Shown here piece after piece: positions 23,976-63,243 of a stretch of DNA of 64,000 bases. Positions within the stretch are counted from its first letter, which is position 1. Every line of letters begins with the position of its first letter. The stretch is from Patescibacteria group bacterium. Its GTDB lineage: Bacteria > Patescibacteriota > Minisyncoccia > Phycocordibacterales > UBA9973. The position numbers were made by a program, and so were the translations under genes. The stretch is taken from contig JAZJXT010000002.1 in the NCBI GenBank assembly GCA_040390725.1, positions 28,450 to 92,449 on the forward strand, written 5' to 3'. The notes beneath the pieces are model-generated. The model had not been told where the DNA came from, did not search any database, and was given only the letters and a program-made list of their open reading frames with translations.

Positions 23976-24069
23976 AAACCGCACATAATTTTCTGCTGAA
24001 AATTTGCTATGTTCGGCTCGTCAGCCTGCGCAATGCTTTTTAAAAAATACTTTCTGTTTTCTTAAAGTT

Positions 24070-25218
24070 ATGAATAGTATAAAAAGTTTAAAAAACATAA
24101 AAGGTAAAAAAGTTCTTGTGAGAGTTGATTTCAATGTGCCTGTTTTGAACGGTAAGGTGGAAGACGATTTCCGAATACAAAAAGCATTGCCAACAATTAA
24201 ATTTTTACAGAAAAAAGGCGCGAAAGTTATTTTAATAACGCACTTGGGTAAAGGCGGGGAAACTCTTTTGCCGGTGGAAAAAGTTTTGAATAAATATGTA
24301 AAAGCTGTTTTTGTGGCTGATATTGTGGGAGAAAAAGCAGAAAATGCTGTGGATGCTATGAAAAATGGTGATGTAATTTTGTTAGAAAATTTACGTAATA
24401 ATGACGGCGAGAAAAATTGTGATAAAACTTTTGCGAAAAGTTTGGCAAAATTCGGGGATATTTATGTGAATGAAGCCTTTCCTGTGTCACACAGAGCTGA
24501 TGCTTCTATTGTTTTGTTGCCGAAGCTTTTGCCGGCGTATGCGGGTTTGCAGTTAGAAAATGAAGTGAAAAATCTTTCGAAAGTTTCCAAGAGCGTAAAG
24601 CATCCATTTCTTTTTATTTTAGGCGGTGCGAAATTTTCTACCAAGATGCCTTTGATTAAAAAATATTTAAAAACTGCGGACAATATTTTTGTTGGCGGAG
24701 CATTAGCGAATGATTTTTTGAAAGCGAAGGGTTATGAAGTTGGCAAATCTTTGACGGACAATGGTGATTTTGGAATTAAGAAATTTATAAATAATAAAAA
24801 ACTTATTTTACCGGTGGATGCTGTAGTCACCTCACCCCAGCCCTCTCCTTATAAAGGAGAGGGGGAATTCGTAAATAAAAAAGCAAGTGAAGTAAAAAAA
24901 GATGAAATTATTTTAGATGTCGGCAGTGAATCAGTAAAAAATTTAGCACCGATTATTAAAAAAGCAAAAATGATTCTCTGGAATGGGCCTTTGGGAAAAT
25001 ATGAAGAAAAAGAATGCAGAGCGACAAAAGAAGTTTTGAAAATGGTGATGAATTCAAAAGCTCAAGTGACTATAGGTGGCGGAGACATAGTCGCTGTTTT
25101 ATCTCAAATGAAAATTAATACTGACAAAAGAAAAAATTTATTTGTATCTACTGGCGGAGGAGCAACTCTCGACTTTCTTGCTAATGGCACCTTGCCAGGA
25201 ATTAAAGCGTTAAAATAA
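24070..25218 (+). CDS. pgk: phosphoglycerate kinase
   Basis: VLVRVDFNVP and ILWNGPLG motifs. Start moved to the ATG at 24070 (MNSIKSLKNIKGKKVLVRVDFNVP). Contains the in-frame palindromic insert at 24828-24865. Confidence 0.9.
   Translation: MNSIKSLKNIKGKKVLVRVDFNVPVLNGKVEDDFRIQKALPTIKFLQKKGAKVILITHLGKGGETLLPVEKVLNKYVKAVFVADIVGEKAENAVDAMKNGDVILLENLRNNDGEKNCDKTFAKSLAKFGDIYVNEAFPVSHRADASIVLLPKLLPAYAGLQLENEVKNLSKVSKSVKHPFLFILGGAKFSTKMPLIKKYLKTADNIFVGGALANDFLKAKGYEVGKSLTDNGDFGIKKFINNKKLILPVDAVVTSPQPSPYKGEGEFVNKKASEVKKDEIILDVGSESVKNLAPIIKKAKMILWNGPLGKYEEKECRATKEVLKMVMNSKAQVTIGGGDIVAVLSQMKINTDKRKNLFVSTGGGATLDFLANGTLPGIKALK
24828..24865 (+). repeat. RPE-like palindromic element, copy 1 (in-frame within pgk; encodes TSPQPSPYKGEGE)
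   Basis: cacctcaccccagccctctccttataaaggagaggggg; core is a perfect 10-bp inverted repeat ccctctcctt/aaggagaggg. Identical reverse-complement copy at 62919-62955 and a 2-mismatch copy at 57294-57329. Confidence 0.6.
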
Positions 25219-25303
25219 ATTTTTGTCATTTTAAAAAATTGACAAATTACTAGATATATATTAATCTTCTTCTTAGAAACATTCTTTGAAAAGGAAAGTT
25301 GAA

Positions 25304-25753
25304 GTGTTAATACGTCAGCTGAAATTCGGCTTATGTTTTAACATTTTAACTATATTATTAATTATGAACACGATTTCTAAAGAAAACACCGCTATTGTCG
25401 CAAGCGTGCTCAATGAAGAAAATATTGAGACCCTTGCTGTTGCTCTAGGGCAGCAAATCTTGCCTTTTTTTAAAGCAAAATCATATTTGGAAAAATTCAA
25501 GTCCCCTGCTCTTAAGCACGTAGTATTTTTTAGAGATGGAACACAAACATCTGATATTAAATTTCATATTTACGATCAAAAAGGGAATGAAAGAGTTGAG
25601 TTTGATTATTTTATTTCTGTGAAGGATAGCTTGACTCATAATTTTTATGGTCAGGACTCTTTCAAAGATGCAGGCTCTATCTTGGAAAGAGAATTTCTTC
25701 TTTCTGTTTCTTTTTATTGGTTTGAGTTGGCTTTAAAGAAGGATAAAAAATAA
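25304..25753 (+). CDS. hypothetical protein with N-terminal hydrophobic segment
   Basis: GTG at 25304 preceded by AAGGAAAG (25291-25298); alternative start ATG 25364. No recognisable domain. Confidence 0.4.
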   Translation: MLIRQLKFGLCFNILTILLIMNTISKENTAIVASVLNEENIETLAVALGQQILPFFKAKSYLEKFKSPALKHVVFFRDGTQTSDIKFHIYDQKGNERVEFDYFISVKDSLTHNFYGQDSFKDAGSILEREFLLSVSFYWFELALKKDKK

Positions 25754-25772
25754 TTGATTACTAGTATCTCGG

Positions 25773-25803
25773 CTGATTTCTGAAAGGGAATCAGTCATTT
25801 TTT
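25773..25803. terminator. weak hairpin + T-run between convergent genes
   Basis: ctgatt ... aatcag stem then tcattttttttat. Confidence 0.35.
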
Positions 25804-26199
25804 TTATACTTTTGCAATAATTTTTTCAGCAACTTCTAATTTTACTGTTTTGTTAATGCAGTCCACAATAGCAGTATATTTAAATTTTTCCATAAAACTT
25901 ATTCCCATTAACGGTCGGTTGTTTGAAATTAAAACAGTGACAAGCAATTCTTGTCCTTCCATATATGCAATAGCAGAAGCTGTTTGGAGAACAACAATTC
26001 CTCCGTTTGCATTTTCAACTTTTTCAATGCCATCTATTTTTAATCCCAATTCCTGGGCAATCTTGGGCGTGACAACTAAATCTCCGGTAAATCCCGTATC
26101 AACTACAAAATACGGAGTTTGAACGGACTGACCCCATAATATTACTGTCGGGACATAAGGTAAGGGATGTTTTAAATCATCAAATTTTCCTGTTACCAT
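25804..26199 (-). CDS. retropepsin-like (clan AA) aspartic protease
   Basis: FVVDTGFTGDLVV active-site D-T-G motif; ~130-aa size typical of the bacterial retropepsin-like family. Confidence 0.65.
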   Translation of the reverse strand: MVTGKFDDLKHPLPYVPTVILWGQSVQTPYFVVDTGFTGDLVVTPKIAQELGLKIDGIEKVENANGGIVVLQTASAIAYMEGQELLVTVLISNNRPLMGISFMEKFKYTAIVDCINKTVKLEVAEKIIAKV

Positions 26200-26200
26200 A

Positions 26201-26473
26201 TTATTTATTTTGGAAAAGATGAGAGATAGTTTCCGCTGTATCTGAACCGATTTTTACCACATAAAATATATTATCAGGGTGTTCCATTTTTGCATTTCTT
26301 ACTGCTTCTGCTGATGTATCACCTAAATATACTTTCTTACTACCAGTATCAATAGCCAAGAATTTACCATTCTCGGCAGGCTGATAGTTATTTTTAACGG
26401 ATTCATATATTTCTACTCCGTCAGTTACTATTTTTTCTATATTGTTGGTTTTGAGTAATTCGTCTGTGCTCAT
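26201..26473 (-). CDS. small hypothetical protein (90 aa) adjacent to the aspartic protease, probably co-transcribed
   Basis: 1-nt intergenic gap with the protease gene; contains AIDTGSKKVYLGD. Confidence 0.4.
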   Translation of the reverse strand: MSTDELLKTNNIEKIVTDGVEIYESVKNNYQPAENGKFLAIDTGSKKVYLGDTSAEAVRNAKMEHPDNIFYVVKIGSDTAETISHLFQNK

Positions 26474-26530
26474 AGTCCAAGTATATTACATTACCGCTTG
26501 CCATTCAACAAGTAGGCAGTGTGGATAAGA

Positions 26531-26978: not shown

Positions 26979-28727
26979 ATGCAACAAAGTGAGTTATTGA
27001 TGAAATTATTAGAAAAAAGAGGCATAACTATCCCTGCCGAAATTGAGAAATTTTTAAACTCCAGCTACGAGAGCGATATGCACGACCCTTTTTTAATGCG
27101 CGATATGGAAAAAGCTTGCGTGCGGATTTTTGAGGCGATGGAAGCCAAAGAAAAAATACTGGTTTATGCGGATTATGATTGCGATGGCATTCCGGGCGCG
27201 GTTATTTTAAATGATTTTTTTAATAAATTAAATTATCAAAACTTTGAGGTGTATATTCCGCAGAGGAATTCCGAGGGATATGGTTTGAATTTGGAAGCGG
27301 TAAAAAAAATGGATGAGGATAGGGTGAAACTTTTGATTACTATTGATTTAGGTATCACAGCCGTGGCGGAAATAGCTCAAGCGGAAGTGTATGGCATAGA
27401 CGTGATAATTACTGACCACCATATTCCTCATGAAGTATTGCCGAGGGCTTATGCTATTTTGAATCCAAAAGTTGATAACTATCCGGAGAAAATGTTGTGC
27501 GGGTCTGGGGTTGTTTTTAAATTAGTGCAAGGGTTTTTGAAAAAGTATGGCGATTACTATCGCGGGGGCGGAGTTTATAATTTTTTGCCTGCGGAACTCG
27601 CCTCCGCTTCGCTACAGCTCAAACAGTCCTCGTCTGCAAAATTACAAACTCCGCCCCCGCGAGACTGGGAGAAATGGCTTCTCGATATGGCAGGGCTCGC
27701 TACACTTTCTGATATGGTGCCGTTATTGGGTGAGAACAGGGCGATTGCGAGTTTTGGAATAAAAGTTTTTAGGAAATCTCCGCGTCCGGGTTTGCAAAAA
27801 CTTTTAGCGAAAATGAATATAGAGCAGAAATATATTTCGGAAGACGATATAGGTTTTATGGTAACGCCACGACTCAATGCAGCATCAAGAATGGATGATC
27901 CGCGTCGAGCTTTTGAATTACTGGCTACGCAAGATGAAACGGAAGCCGGAGTATTGGCAAACCATTTGACGAAAATAAATGATGACAGGAAAAAAATCGT
28001 TGCGGGGATAATGAAAGATGTAAATAAAAAATTCGACAAAAGAGAAATAAAAAATGTGATAGTGATAGGGCATCCGGAGTGGCGGGTCGGGGTTCTCGGT
28101 TTGGTTGCGGGGAAAATTTGTGATGAACATAAAAAGCCGGTTTTCGTGTGGGGGAAAGATGAAAATGATTGCATTAAAGGCTCGTGTCGTTCTGACGGTT
28201 CTGTATCTGTGGTGGAACTTATGACGGAAACAAAAGAATATTTCTTGGATTTCGGCGGACACGAAGGCGCAGGAGGTTTTACTGTGCACAGTGAAAAAAT
28301 ACATTTCTTGGAAGAAAATTTATCTCAATCTTTTCAAAAAATTATAGAGAAAACTATAGTTAAAGAAAAAGTATCGCTTCCAGGCTTTGATGTTAAATTA
28401 AATTTAGGTGATGTAAATATGAAAAATTGGAAAGAGATAGAAAAAATGGCGCCATTTGGTTGTGAAAATCCAAAACCAGTTTTTCTTTTTGAAAATGTAA
28501 AAATAGAAAAATTAAAAAAATTTGGAAAAAACAATTCACAAGAACATTTGGAGATTATTTTTTCTGATGCTACAGGTAAAGCTAAAGCGATTGCATTTTT
28601 CTCCGGCTTGGAATCTTTCAAAAAATCATTAGCCGAAAATTTAAATGTAAACTTATTGGCAACTTTTGATTTATCCCGTTTCCTAAGGAGAGAAGAGCTA
28701 AGATTAAGAATTGTTGATATTTTTTAA
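26979..28727 (+). CDS. recJ: single-stranded-DNA-specific exonuclease RecJ
   Basis: DHH motifs (YADYDCDGI, ITDHH) and DHHA1 region (GGHEGAGG). Contains a 102-bp in-frame palindromic insert at 27561-27662. Confidence 0.9.
   Translation: MQQSELLMKLLEKRGITIPAEIEKFLNSSYESDMHDPFLMRDMEKACVRIFEAMEAKEKILVYADYDCDGIPGAVILNDFFNKLNYQNFEVYIPQRNSEGYGLNLEAVKKMDEDRVKLLITIDLGITAVAEIAQAEVYGIDVIITDHHIPHEVLPRAYAILNPKVDNYPEKMLCGSGVVFKLVQGFLKKYGDYYRGGGVYNFLPAELASASLQLKQSSSAKLQTPPPRDWEKWLLDMAGLATLSDMVPLLGENRAIASFGIKVFRKSPRPGLQKLLAKMNIEQKYISEDDIGFMVTPRLNAASRMDDPRRAFELLATQDETEAGVLANHLTKINDDRKKIVAGIMKDVNKKFDKREIKNVIVIGHPEWRVGVLGLVAGKICDEHKKPVFVWGKDENDCIKGSCRSDGSVSVVELMTETKEYFLDFGGHEGAGGFTVHSEKIHFLEENLSQSFQKIIEKTIVKEKVSLPGFDVKLNLGDVNMKNWKEIEKMAPFGCENPKPVFLFENVKIEKLKKFGKNNSQEHLEIIFSDATGKAKAIAFFSGLESFKKSLAENLNVNLLATFDLSRFLRREELRLRIVDIF
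27561..27662 (+). repeat. 102-bp element with 20-bp terminal inverted repeats inserted in-frame in recJ
   Basis: cgcgggggcggagtttataa (27561-27580) vs ttacaaactccgcccccgcg (27643-27662): 19/20 complementary. 102 bp = 34 codons, encoding RGGGVYNFLPAELASASLQLKQSSSAKLQTPPPR. Confidence 0.55.
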
Positions 28728-29973: not shown

Positions 29974-32139
29974 ATGCGAGATAAAATATTTTATTTTACT
30001 TGTTTTGGTTTCGCCCTAGGAGTGCTTTTGCGCTCTTTTGTTTTTGTGAATTTTTATACGGCTATTTTTGCCGGAGTGATTGCTGTTTTTCTTTTATTAT
30101 TTTTCACTTTGATTTCTAAAAATAATCAGGGCATAGTCGCCAGTATTTTTATCATAACTTTTTCACTGGGAATTATACGTTTTCATATTGCCGACGAGCC
30201 TGCACCGTATATTTATGAGTCTCAAGTCGGCAGTAGTGTAGAATTCTCCGGTGAAATAATCGACGAGCCGAGCATTAAAGAAAAAAATATCAGTTTAACT
30301 GTACTTTTGGCTCCTCAAGGTTCTGCCTCGGGCTTACTAGAGGCAAAACCTTTTCCCGCCAAAACAGAAATTTTAATCACTACTGATTTTGCAGGGGATT
30401 ATAAATATGGTGATGAAATAAATTTCAAGGGTAAGCTAGAAAAACCGGAGAACTTTATGACGGATCAAGGGAAGGAATTTGATTATGTAAATTATCTGCG
30501 TAAAGATGGGATTTTTTATGTGATGAAATATCCAAAAATTGAAGTTATTTCACGCGGGCATGGGAACTTTTTAAAAAATATTTTATTTTCTGCGAAAGAA
30601 AAGTTTTTAGAAAAAATGAATATGGCAATATCTGAGCCGGAGTCATTGTTAATGGGCGGGCTTATCTTGGGAGAGAAATCTTCATTTAGTCAGGCATTGC
30701 GACAATCTTTCGTAAATACCGGCACGATACATATAGTAGCTCTTTCTGGATATAACGTGACCATTGTCGCTGAATGGATTATGAAACTCTTCTCATTCTT
30801 GCCGAAAAATTTAGGCATAGGAATGGGTATTTTGTCTGTGATTCTTTTTATAATAATGTCAGGCGGGAGTTCTACGGCTATTCGCGCCGGAGTGATGGCA
30901 GTTTTGGCACTCTTCGCTCGTGCGACAGGGAGGAATTATGATGTAGGGCGAGCATTAGTACTCGCCGGGATAATAATGATTTTATTTAATCCTTTTGTTT
31001 TGGCTTTTGATGTGTCTTTTCAACTTTCTTTTATCGCTACCATTGCTGTGATTTTCTTGTCGCCGAGAATTGAAAAATATTTTCTTTGGGTGCCCAAGCG
31101 TTTTGAGTTGCGGGATATTATTTCTGTCACCTGCGCGGCGTATATTTTTGTTCTTCCTTTTATTTTATACAAAATGGGTAATTTGTCGCTCGTAGCGTTG
31201 CCGGCGAATATTATGATTTTGCCTTTTATTCCTATTACGATGATATTTGGTTTTCTCACAGGTTTTGCCGGAATTATTTGGCATTTCTTGGCTTTGCCTT
31301 TCGGCTATGTTTCGTATTTTTTATTGCATTACGAACTCAGCACTATTAGTTTCTTTTCAAATTTACCTTTTGCGTCATTTTCTATCCCTAATTTTCCATT
31401 AATTTTAACTTTAGTAATTTATGCATTTATGCTCTGGAAAATTTTTAGGTATCCTTTGCCGGAAAAAAAAGAAGAAATTAAAAAAGAGAAAAAATTCAGA
31501 ATAAACGATATTTTAAAATCTAAATTTAAGTTTTTAATTTTGTTATTTATTTGTTCGGTAATTATTTTAAGTAGTTTTTATTTTTATTATTCAAACAGAG
31601 AACAAAATAATATTGCTGAGCAAAAACTGCAAGCACTTTTATTAAAAACTCCGACGCATCTTCTTGTTCTTGAATCAAGGGATAAAGACAACGATTGTCG
31701 GGTTAGGGGGCCTTTGCCTGATCCTGATTGCAGTCCGGGGGCAGTATTTACCGATAAAACATTGGAACAAATATGCGTGCGTGGGTATACAAAAACTGTC
31801 CGTAATGTTTCTACGAATTTAAAAAAGAAAATTTATGCCGAATATAGTATAGCGTATCCGGCACCAAAAGGTTCTTACGAAGTAGACCACATTATTCCTC
31901 TTGAACTCGGAGGTAGTAATGACATATCAAATTTATTTCCAGAATCAGCCGAGCCTATGCCAGGCTTTCGTGAGAAAGATTTAGTAGAAAATTATTTGCA
32001 CCAAGAATCTTGCGCCGGCAACGTCGCCTTGTCTGTCGCGCAATATCAAATAGCCACTGACTGGCTAGCTGTTTATAATAGCTTGAGTCCTGATCAAATC
32101 ACCGCATTAAAAAATCAATATCACAATTGGTCGTATTAA
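29974..32139 (+). CDS. comEC: ComEC/Rec2 DNA-uptake channel protein with a C-terminal HNH-nuclease-like domain
   Basis: DUF4131/OB region, then the competence domain (LMGGLILGEKS...VNTGTIHIVALSGYNVTIV, multiple TMs). The C-terminal ~150 aa has YEVDHIIPLELGGSNDISNLFP (HNH-like) in place of the beta-lactamase-like domain. Confidence 0.8.
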   Translation: MRDKIFYFTCFGFALGVLLRSFVFVNFYTAIFAGVIAVFLLLFFTLISKNNQGIVASIFIITFSLGIIRFHIADEPAPYIYESQVGSSVEFSGEIIDEPSIKEKNISLTVLLAPQGSASGLLEAKPFPAKTEILITTDFAGDYKYGDEINFKGKLEKPENFMTDQGKEFDYVNYLRKDGIFYVMKYPKIEVISRGHGNFLKNILFSAKEKFLEKMNMAISEPESLLMGGLILGEKSSFSQALRQSFVNTGTIHIVALSGYNVTIVAEWIMKLFSFLPKNLGIGMGILSVILFIIMSGGSSTAIRAGVMAVLALFARATGRNYDVGRALVLAGIIMILFNPFVLAFDVSFQLSFIATIAVIFLSPRIEKYFLWVPKRFELRDIISVTCAAYIFVLPFILYKMGNLSLVALPANIMILPFIPITMIFGFLTGFAGIIWHFLALPFGYVSYFLLHYELSTISFFSNLPFASFSIPNFPLILTLVIYAFMLWKIFRYPLPEKKEEIKKEKKFRINDILKSKFKFLILLFICSVIILSSFYFYYSNREQNNIAEQKLQALLLKTPTHLLVLESRDKDNDCRVRGPLPDPDCSPGAVFTDKTLEQICVRGYTKTVRNVSTNLKKKIYAEYSIAYPAPKGSYEVDHIIPLELGGSNDISNLFPESAEPMPGFREKDLVENYLHQESCAGNVALSVAQYQIATDWLAVYNSLSPDQITALKNQYHNWSY

Positions 32140-57293: not shown

Positions 57294-57329
57294 CCTCACC
57301 CCAACCCTCTCCTTATTAAGGAGAGGGGG
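57294..57329 (+). repeat. RPE-like palindromic element, copy 2 (intergenic, metG-tatD)
   Basis: cctcaccccaaccctctccttattaaggagaggggg; 2 mismatches to copies 1 and 3; perfect 10-bp stem. Confidence 0.55.
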
Positions 57330-62694: not shown

Positions 62695-63243
62695 TTACTT
62701 TTTTTCATAAACCACAAAAGAATACGGCAAGGGGTTTTTGTCGTCGGGTTGGTGATTTTCGCGCCAGGTTTCTTTCCAGATGTTTTTATCTATTGCAGGG
62801 AAAAACACATCGGCAGTTTTGTCTTCGGCACTTATTTCTGTGATGTCTAGGTGCGTCGCCACTGTATTTATGGCTTGTCGGTAAATATCCGCTCCGCCTA
62901 TTATGTAAACTTTTTCTTCCCCCTCTCCTTTATAAGGAGAGGGCTGGGGTGAGGTGCTTACTTTTTTAACTGCCTCCTCTAAAGAATGCACTACGTCTAT
63001 GCCGAGGCGTAGATAGCTTTTATCTCGTGTGATTATTATATTTCTGCGGGATGGCAAAGGTCGTCCAAGTTCGCCAGAAGGGCTTTTGCCCAATGATTCA
63101 AAAGTTTTCCTGCCCATTATTACCGGATGCCCCAAAGTTTTATCTCGAAAATATTTTTGATCTGCCGGCATTTTCCAAACTAAATCATTACCCTTGCCGA
63201 GCTCATTATTTTTTCCTATGGCTGCTATTAGTGAAATTATCAT
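62695..63243 (-). CDS. folA: dihydrofolate reductase
   Basis: MIISLIAAIGKNNELGKGNDLVWKMPADQKYFRDKTLGHPVIMGRKTF. Contains the in-frame palindromic insert (STSPQPSPYKGEGEE). Confidence 0.9.
   Translation of the reverse strand: MIISLIAAIGKNNELGKGNDLVWKMPADQKYFRDKTLGHPVIMGRKTFESLGKSPSGELGRPLPSRRNIIITRDKSYLRLGIDVVHSLEEAVKKVSTSPQPSPYKGEGEEKVYIIGGADIYRQAINTVATHLDITEISAEDKTADVFFPAIDKNIWKETWRENHQPDDKNPLPYSFVVYEKK
62919..62955 (-). repeat. RPE-like palindromic element, copy 3 (in-frame within folA)
   Basis: Reverse complement is cctcaccccagccctctccttataaaggagagggg, identical to the pgk copy; same orientation relative to its host gene. Confidence 0.6.

Follow-up and report, generated by a model that had tools for sequence, protein, structure and literature searches.

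The stand-alone retropepsin-like aspartic protease encoded in the window, that is, the whole 64,000-nucleotide stretch of DNA analyzed here, is one half of a two-gene module in which the other half is a small protein of 90 residues encoded immediately upstream. The pairing of the two genes is close to obligatory, and the window copy is an ordinary member of what is a widespread module. As a tentative explanation, we favor an autonomous toxin-antitoxin-like cassette, in which the small partner would keep the protease in check. To our knowledge, the sequences of prokaryotic stand-alone retropepsins (COG5550/TIGR03698) have been available for more than 15 years with no function attached to them. 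That such proteases travel with a dedicated partner of the DUF5678 type provides a testable hypothesis both for this protease family and for the domain of unknown function.

The protease and its partner

Both ORFs are carried by the minus strand, where the 90-aa partner gene (26201-26473), of a divergent DUF5678 type, is gene 1 of the cassette in order of transcription (the 5′ gene of the pair), and the 131-aa gene encoding the retropepsin-like (clan AA, DTGF-type) aspartic protease (25804-26199) is gene 2. The preliminary description of this DNA was accurate as to the positions of the two ORFs, their shared strand, the 1-nt gap and the upstream location of the 90-aa gene, but its heading referred to an overlapping partner gene, and there is no overlap, as the 90-aa ORF (26473-26201) and the 131-aa ORF (26199-25804) are separated by a single intergenic base, 26200. 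The NCBI entries identical to the two proteins, from a Patescibacteria group bacterium MAG, are annotated as hypothetical proteins. The neighbors of the pair in the window are the housekeeping genes HIT, RecJ and PGK. The HIT hydrolase gene (26941-26531, minus strand; PF01230, E 1e-29) is on the same strand, as had been noted, but it precedes the pair rather than following it, and a spacer of 57 nt lies between it and the partner gene. A consensus scan found in this spacer the promoter-like sequence TTGAAT-17-TATACT (26480-26508, minus strand), which ends 6 nt before the ATG and is compatible with a promoter of the cassette's own and a near-leaderless transcript, in a region where the scan finds no more promoter-like sites than in shuffled sequences. 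On the other side, between the protease gene and a convergent 155-aa ORF (25286-25753, plus strand), is a hairpin of 11 pairs (25771-25796) with a T-run as read on the plus strand; it is possibly a terminator and might serve the minus-strand cassette.

The active-site sequence FVVDTGFTGDLVV attributed earlier to the 131-aa protein is indeed present, with the putative catalytic residues D34-T35-G36 encoded by GAT ACG GGA (26092-26100, minus strand), and the proposal that this protein is a retropepsin-like aspartic protease is borne out by family match, profile and fold. Its best NCBIfam match is TIGR03698 ("clan AA aspartic protease, DTGF type"; E 8e-12), at 45.4 bits, which is below the curated cut-off of 57.35 bits; two other NCBIfam matches are far weaker, and the Pfam families gag-asp_proteas and Asp_protease_2 match weakly. 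The window protease is treated here as a divergent relative of TIGR03698, from a divergent Patescibacteria branch, and not as a curated member. The closest solved structure is that of the Rickettsia retropepsin ApRick/APRc (5c9b), which was found at E 5e-6 with a profile of diverse relatives searched against PDB sequences, and by Foldseek at E 4e-4 with TM 0.59-0.66. The AF2 model of the protease (pLDDT 84) is an all-beta barrel with strands at both termini (residues 2-6 and 118-123), a flap-like hairpin (57-62/68-80) and a short helix (100-105) following the LMG motif, and its top Foldseek matches, all with probability 1.00, are APRc 5c9b, XMRV protease, HIV-1 protease and the protease domain of Ddi1. 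The hydrophobic-hydrophobic-Gly ("ILG") motif is found at P96-L97-M98-G99-I100 (codons 25900-25914, minus strand), where G99 is invariant and P96 and L97 are nearly so. The DTG triad and the "ILG" motif correspond to the DTG/ILG template of clan AA (PMC2642776), and together with the predicted retropepsin fold and its flap hairpin they confirm the 131-aa protein as a single-domain retropepsin-like clan AA aspartic protease.

Among relatives of the protease, little or no variation is seen in DTGFTGDL, the usual context of the active site, or in the PL-x-G-I motif farther on. The DTG itself is kept in 104 of 104 non-identical orthologues, which indicates that the enzyme is under selection to work. 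Inspection of the sequence found no hydrophobic segment at the N-terminus of the protease, and for this reason it is probably cytosolic; like other retropepsins, it presumably works as a homodimer.

The partner is less easily placed, as the window's 90-aa protein alone has no Pfam match even at E ≤ 10. Its relatives, however, lead to PF18929 (DUF5678; gathering threshold 23.2 bits), which is matched by 27 of 47 orthologues at E ≤ 1 (best 7.8e-5) and by 17 of 99 more distant relatives at E ≤ 0.01 (best 2.8e-6), and its best structured matches in BFVD are DUF5678 proteins of Pandoravirus (TM 0.53-0.59, E 0.017-0.09). Judged by these profiles and by its model, the 90-aa protein is a divergent, predicted alpha/beta protein of the DUF5678 type. 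The AF2 model (pLDDT 76.8) has helices at residues 9-30 and 54-64, strands at 38-42, 47-51 and 70-74, and no regular structure after residue 74. Close homologues of the partner number 54, and an exhaustive profile search yielded 1175 cluster representatives at E ≤ 1e-3. Among these, the 150 matches listed are without exception small proteins that stand alone (57-183 aa) and are too short for a fusion to a protease; three, of ~180 aa, contain two matched stretches each. The partner is conserved along nearly its full length, with GKFLAI and YVVKIG invariant and only the last 3-6 residues variable. A RiPP-like arrangement of precursor and protease was also considered and was rejected on inspection, given conservation along almost the whole partner.

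The conserved part of the partner includes the C-terminal segment of residues 75-84 (IGSDTAETIS; codons 26222-26251, minus strand), for which no regular structure is predicted. Column entropy in the alignment is low at G76, S77, D78, A80, E81, T82 and S84, and distant relatives retain, near the C-terminus, the motif IG[FY]xxA[FY], rich in hydrophobic and aromatic residues. We infer from this that the segment is a candidate for the element that contacts the protease, where it may perhaps occupy the substrate cleft in the form of an extended strand.

The preliminary description had drawn attention to FLAIDTGSKKVYLGD in the 90-aa protein and to the DTGS box within it; the box is present, and it is the active-site meaning given to it that does not hold. 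These residues, D42-T43-G44-S45 (GAT ACT GGT AGT, 26339-26350, minus strand), are at the turn of the predicted beta-hairpin. Of 104 non-identical partner orthologues, the window copy is the only one with DTG, the usual sequence at the DTGS position being DIDS or DIES, with EIDS and others also found, and DTG occurs by base rate in 5 of the 57 gene-sized ORFs of the window (~0.02 expected per 90 aa). Because of its occurrence in 1 of 104 orthologues and of this base rate, the DTGS of the partner is best read as a chance tetrapeptide and should not be taken for an active site, and a tempting annotation error is corrected thereby. One of the possibilities that had been raised was that the 90-aa protein might supply the second DTG-bearing half of a catalytic heterodimer with the protease. 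The tetrapeptide in this one sequence is what speaks for such a heterodimer, which is refuted both by sequence conservation and by the predicted fold, a helix, beta-hairpin, helix and strand instead of a beta-barrel, and we regard it as so improbable that it can be set aside for practical purposes. Homology of the 90-aa protein to an unrelated family had been named as an outcome that would count against the earlier proposal; the family is DUF5678.

Conservation, spread and decay of the pair

The suggestion that the 90-aa gene is a partner of the protease was accompanied by a test, conservation of the pair, and the outcome was in favor of the pair. When genome loci were retrieved via the small protein, a homologue of the protease was directly downstream on the same strand in 73 of 80, and when 80 metagenome loci were retrieved via the protease, the best 80 of 392 protease matches, the small gene was directly upstream in all 79 that had room for it. 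The five distant small proteins that were followed up (31-36% identity) likewise all have a protease of the DTGF kind behind them. The stop-to-start spacer is between -4 and +11 nt in 120 of 124 intact pairs (1 nt in the window pair), a spacing that fits translational coupling and stoichiometric co-production of the two proteins. Partner and protease have diverged together (pairwise-identity correlation r = 0.85), both are under clear purifying selection, and mean identity among orthologues is 64% for the partner vs 58% for the protease. The mutual information between the two proteins, calculated with APC for 104 pairs, is dominated by phylogeny, the top pairs only mirroring the split into subfamilies.

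Such pairs also occur in Cyanobacteria, where genes annotated as "clan AA aspartic protease" on the plasmids pCC7120alpha of Nostoc PCC 7120 and several of Tolypothrix PCC 7712 and PCC 7601 are each preceded by a hypothetical gene of 90-105 aa with a 4-nt overlap. The two cyanobacterial plasmid partners that were compared with that of the window are remotely homologous to it (hhalign probability 88-94%). TIGR03698 is the only NCBIfam match for every partnered protease tested, at 21.6-68.9 bits, and of these proteases only the Nostoc PCC 7120 plasmid copy exceeds the TIGR03698 cut-off. These plasmids were reached by tblastn only with a more typical protease from Poribacteria; with the window protease, neither plasmids nor GenBank phages gave a tblastn match, and a scan of IMG/VR with a pattern of the protease gave none either.

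The cassette is independent of its genomic context. The largest cluster of flanking genes comprises 5 of 81 loci, and 147 immediate neighbors fall into 119 different Pfam families, none of which recurs more than three times. The closest relative of the window pair (73% identity) is on the opposite strand of a contig to which many short ORFs, together with GroEL/GroES-like, endolysin-like and HNH genes, give the look of a phage. Other copies are on mobilizable or conjugative plasmids, adjoining genes for ParA and tyrosine recombinase, one copy adjoins a PIN/AF2212-like pair, and another adjoins plasmid-type genes. Most genomes have one copy, two MAGs have two each (L004/L020 and L039/L052), and in Tolypothrix PCC 7712 three plasmids carry one copy each, the three being divergent.

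These observations bear on whether the two proteins are a housekeeping factor for protein quality control or processing together with its cofactor or adaptor, and not a selfish element, the positions of the pair varying only because CPR genomes are heavily rearranged. Ordinary housekeeping genes are indeed the neighbors in most Patescibacteria loci, including that of the window, one copy per genome is the rule, both proteins are under purifying selection, and RimB is a cytosolic bacterial retropepsin with a defined regulatory role (PMC11957791). This explanation is nevertheless hard to reconcile with the patchy distribution, with 93 confirmed matches among representatives of 185,579 species, with the pair on plasmids and in a phage-like contig, with several divergent copies in one strain, and with a protease gene that has repeatedly been lost or has decayed, and we consider it quite unlikely.

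The decay of the pair is lopsided. In 7 of 80 loci the small gene is without a protease gene, and it is intact in six of the seven. One of these loci, L079, has the small gene only, by comparison with its syntenic relative L080, and in another, L015, a deletion has joined the small gene to a C-terminal remnant of the protease. In about 10 further loci the protease gene is truncated or frameshifted and the small gene is kept, a count of decayed proteases that MAG assembly errors may inflate. The converse, in which the partner is truncated and the protease intact, occurred once in 79 loci (L148). The asymmetry is partly an effect of ascertainment, since the scan with the protease was limited to the best 80 of 392 matches.

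The same loci constrain a scheme of reversed polarity on the model of RosmerTA, in which toxicity would lie with the small protein and the protease, as antitoxin, would destroy or process it. There are antitoxins with a protease domain (RmrA; PMC10440598), and in the 79 loci with room upstream the protease is never without its partner, even if 1 of the 79 partners is truncated. The six intact small genes that have no protease and the approximately 10 that are beside a broken one should however be lethal to their hosts in such a scheme, and in L148 it is the small gene that is truncated and the protease that is intact, so that reversed polarity appears very unlikely.

What the partner may do to the protease

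The toxin-antitoxin-like cassette is our leading explanation because of the independence from genomic context, the association with plasmids and phage, the occurrence in multiple copies and the lopsided decay. The two genes would form a self-contained bicistronic unit in which the partner is produced in step with the protease, binds it and holds it inactive, possibly by means of its conserved C-terminal segment (IG-x-D-x-A-E-T). Upon loss or degradation of the partner, the free protease would cleave proteins of the cell or of an invader, and its release would stabilize the carrier element or abort infection. The binding, the inhibition and the toxicity of the protease are steps that we infer. 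The near-obligatory pairing, tight spacer, co-divergence and conserved active site, as well as the decay pattern, are all on the side of a toxin-antitoxin-like role. On the other side are the L148 exception and a partner that has no recognizable DNA-binding domain and whose conservation is no lower than that of the protease (64% vs 58%), as antitoxins usually evolve faster than toxins and most type II antitoxins carry a DNA-binding domain. Also on that side are the results from defense and virus collections: the PADLOC defense models gave no significant match (E ≤ 0.01) for either protein, the best being a generic "protease" at E 0.018, IMG/VR and GenBank phages gave none, and matches in PHROGs were non-significant only.

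The features that point to a dedicated partner, namely co-conservation, coupling and co-divergence, are expected to the same extent if the partner is not an inhibitor but a dedicated substrate or regulator of the protease. Retropepsins bind extended segments of their substrates, and the C-terminal IG[FY]xxA[FY] of the partner, which is devoid of regular structure, is a segment of this type. Cleavage triggered by a signal, for example in the C-terminal segment, would then toggle a switch or mature the partner. In ImmR/ImmA, too, the gene for the protease follows that of its substrate (PMC10440598). The partner, on the other hand, contains no HTH, known effector or DNA-binding domain: no match of the HTH, RHH, AbrB or Phd type was found in Pfam for the partner and its homologues, and the model of the partner has no structural match to a DNA-binding fold. 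There are no conserved downstream target genes, and intact partner genes persist where the protease is missing, which would be odd if their function required processing. A partner that is a dedicated substrate or regulator is the main rival of the toxin-antitoxin-like explanation, and we consider it rather unlikely on balance. Substrate and immunity protein, the two fallbacks of the preliminary description, remain as two live explanations.

In the literature searched, neither the pair nor any function for it is described, no toxin of a toxin-antitoxin system with an aspartic protease fold is described, and the paper on the NetFlax toxin-antitoxin network mentions neither domain. The more general proposal, that the DUF5678/TIGR03698 pair is a widespread undescribed toxin-antitoxin or abortive-infection module with a retropepsin-like effector that is inhibited in trans, is a possibility that we put forward with considerable doubt. 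If the proposal were true, it would provide the first aspartic-protease toxin. If the partner does inhibit, a retropepsin would have a natural inhibitor that is itself a protein, and toxins of a new enzymatic class would join the toxin-antitoxin and phage-defense repertoire; the enzyme lineage is one considered akin to the ancestors of the retroviral and Ddi1 proteases. If instead the partner serves as substrate, the two genes would amount to a minimal proteolytic switch.

Comparison with known systems

The window protease is like the proteins of TIGR03698/COG5550, for which we take A. fulgidus AF_0612 to be the archetype, in that these are stand-alone proteins of ~120 aa with a DTGF active-site motif and an ILG-type motif, and it differs in scoring below the curated cut-off of TIGR03698 (45.4 bits, the cut-off being 57.35). 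No conserved partner gene is described for TIGR03698/COG5550 in the literature searched, and of the prokaryotic single-domain clan AA peptidases in general "little is known" (Llorens et al., 2009; PMC2642776). The core of the partner, consisting of a beta-hairpin (GKFLAI-D...), a helix and a strand (FYVVKIG), fits the 49-position profile of DUF5678, to which the partner adds an N-terminal helix and the conserved C-terminal tail. There is no functional paper on DUF5678 in the literature searched, its sole mention being in an unrelated paper.

We know of no DUF5678 partner for APRc (RC1339) of Rickettsia conorii, which is, like the window protease, a bacterial single-domain retropepsin. APRc is joined to a domain embedded in the membrane, and its site of action is the cell surface (PMC4140852), whereas the window protease has no hydrophobic N-terminal segment. 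RimB (PMC11957791) and RloA-C (PMC12239564) are further small bacterial enzymes with the retropepsin fold, the former acting inside the cell and encoded in a dedicated operon, rimABK (PMC11957791), and the latter being secreted (PMC12239564). They belong to other families and operons and do not have a small upstream partner of this kind, and RloA (9g58) is a poor structural match of the window protease (Foldseek rank 46).

In their organization, two small co-directional genes with an overlap or minimal spacer, the smaller one first, the pairs are like type II toxin-antitoxin systems. They are also like them in being patchy and independent of context, with copies on plasmids and in a phage-like contig and several copies in a genome. 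The orphan first genes and decayed second genes among the 80 loci retrieved via the small protein may be a further likeness, the converse case being L148, among the best 80 of 392 protease matches. They are unlike them in that no known DNA-binding domain is found in the partner, and in that the literature searched has no toxin that is an aspartic protease, which also speaks against a toxin-antitoxin-like role.

Further parallels are ImmR/ImmA and RosmerTA (RmrT/RmrA; PMC10440598), two-gene modules of mobile elements in which one gene is likewise for a site-specific protease and the other for its small cognate protein, the protease acting on its neighbor or being controlled by it (PMC10440598). 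In RosmerTA the protease domain is the antitoxin (PMC10440598). Those systems combine a protease of the ImmA/IrrE type (COG2856) with an HTH partner, whereas a clan AA protease is combined here with a DUF5678 protein, and the resemblance would be one of function only.

The cassette in a phage-like contig and in split loci

The cassette comprises a gene for the divergent DUF5678-type partner protein followed by one for the retropepsin-like protease, and its closest relative, at 73% identity, is found in a 13.7-kb Logan contig from SRR29078246 (L169:1-8691), where this relative lies on the opposite strand to a surrounding run of short overlapping ORFs that includes GroEL-like, GroES-like and endolysin-like (PG_binding_1) genes together with two HNH genes. 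This contig is probably that of a phage of a Patescibacteria host, in which the cassette would be a moron-like insert. Separately, two loci on metagenome contigs, Ga0209542_10057869 (L113:2799-3001) and Ga0209541_10050268 (L126), depart from the otherwise tight spacing of the pair in that about 200 nt of extra DNA separates the partner gene from the protease gene.

Duplications and a stray DTG among partner relatives

In the search with the partner profile, three representative proteins of 179-183 aa (P0100, P0192 and P0217) each contained two profile-matching stretches, as though the DUF5678-type domain had been duplicated in tandem within one polypeptide. None of the 150 matches listed was long enough to be a fusion of a partner relative to a protease. 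A remote partner homologue on a plasmid of Tolypothrix PCC 7601 (L164:2187-2504) ends in ...FKINDTGVAGTI and also contains DTG, located in its C-terminal tail and hence at a different place from the DTG of the window's partner, while its sister in L163 reads INESGACGTI. As a second non-conserved DTG, it is a further sign that the tripeptide cannot serve as a diagnostic feature.

Neighboring ORFs

Convergent with the protease gene is a 155-aa ORF (25286-25753, plus strand) that has no Pfam match and whose sole NCBIfam match is non-significant (E 0.086). On a contig (L171) that carries a HIT gene identical to that of the window, along with ORFs matching the pair in size, a shorter version of 129 aa is called at the same position. 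Further along, after RNase H, a 721-aa multi-pass membrane ORF (29974-32139, plus strand) looks ComEC/Rec2-like from its sequence, and its terminal segment, inspected by eye in translation, has a candidate HNH-like signature (...EVDHIIPLELGGSNDISNLFP...).

Candidate in-frame palindromic elements

The window contains three copies of the palindrome CCCTCTCCTT-NNN-AAGGAGAGGG, versus 0.00 expected from shuffles. One copy is intergenic (57305-57327), and the other two are in-frame insertions in different housekeeping genes, within the PGK ORF (copy at 24841-24863, ORF 24004..25218, plus strand) and within a DHFR-like ORF (copy at 62921-62943, ORF 62695..63243, minus strand), the same peptide, SPQPSPYKGEGE, being added in both. 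The RecJ ORF (26979..28727, plus strand) also contains an insert of about 100 bp (27561-27661) with perfect inverted arms of 16 bp (CGCGGGGGCGGAGTTT) at its two ends. This insert is in frame, codes for ...YYRGGGVYNFLPAELASASLQLKQSSSAKLQTPPPRDWEKW... and has the appearance of an in-frame palindromic element of a second type. Rickettsia palindromic elements insert into coding sequences, and the in-frame occurrence of the CCCTCTCCTT-NNN-AAGGAGAGGG palindrome within coding sequences of the window recalls them.
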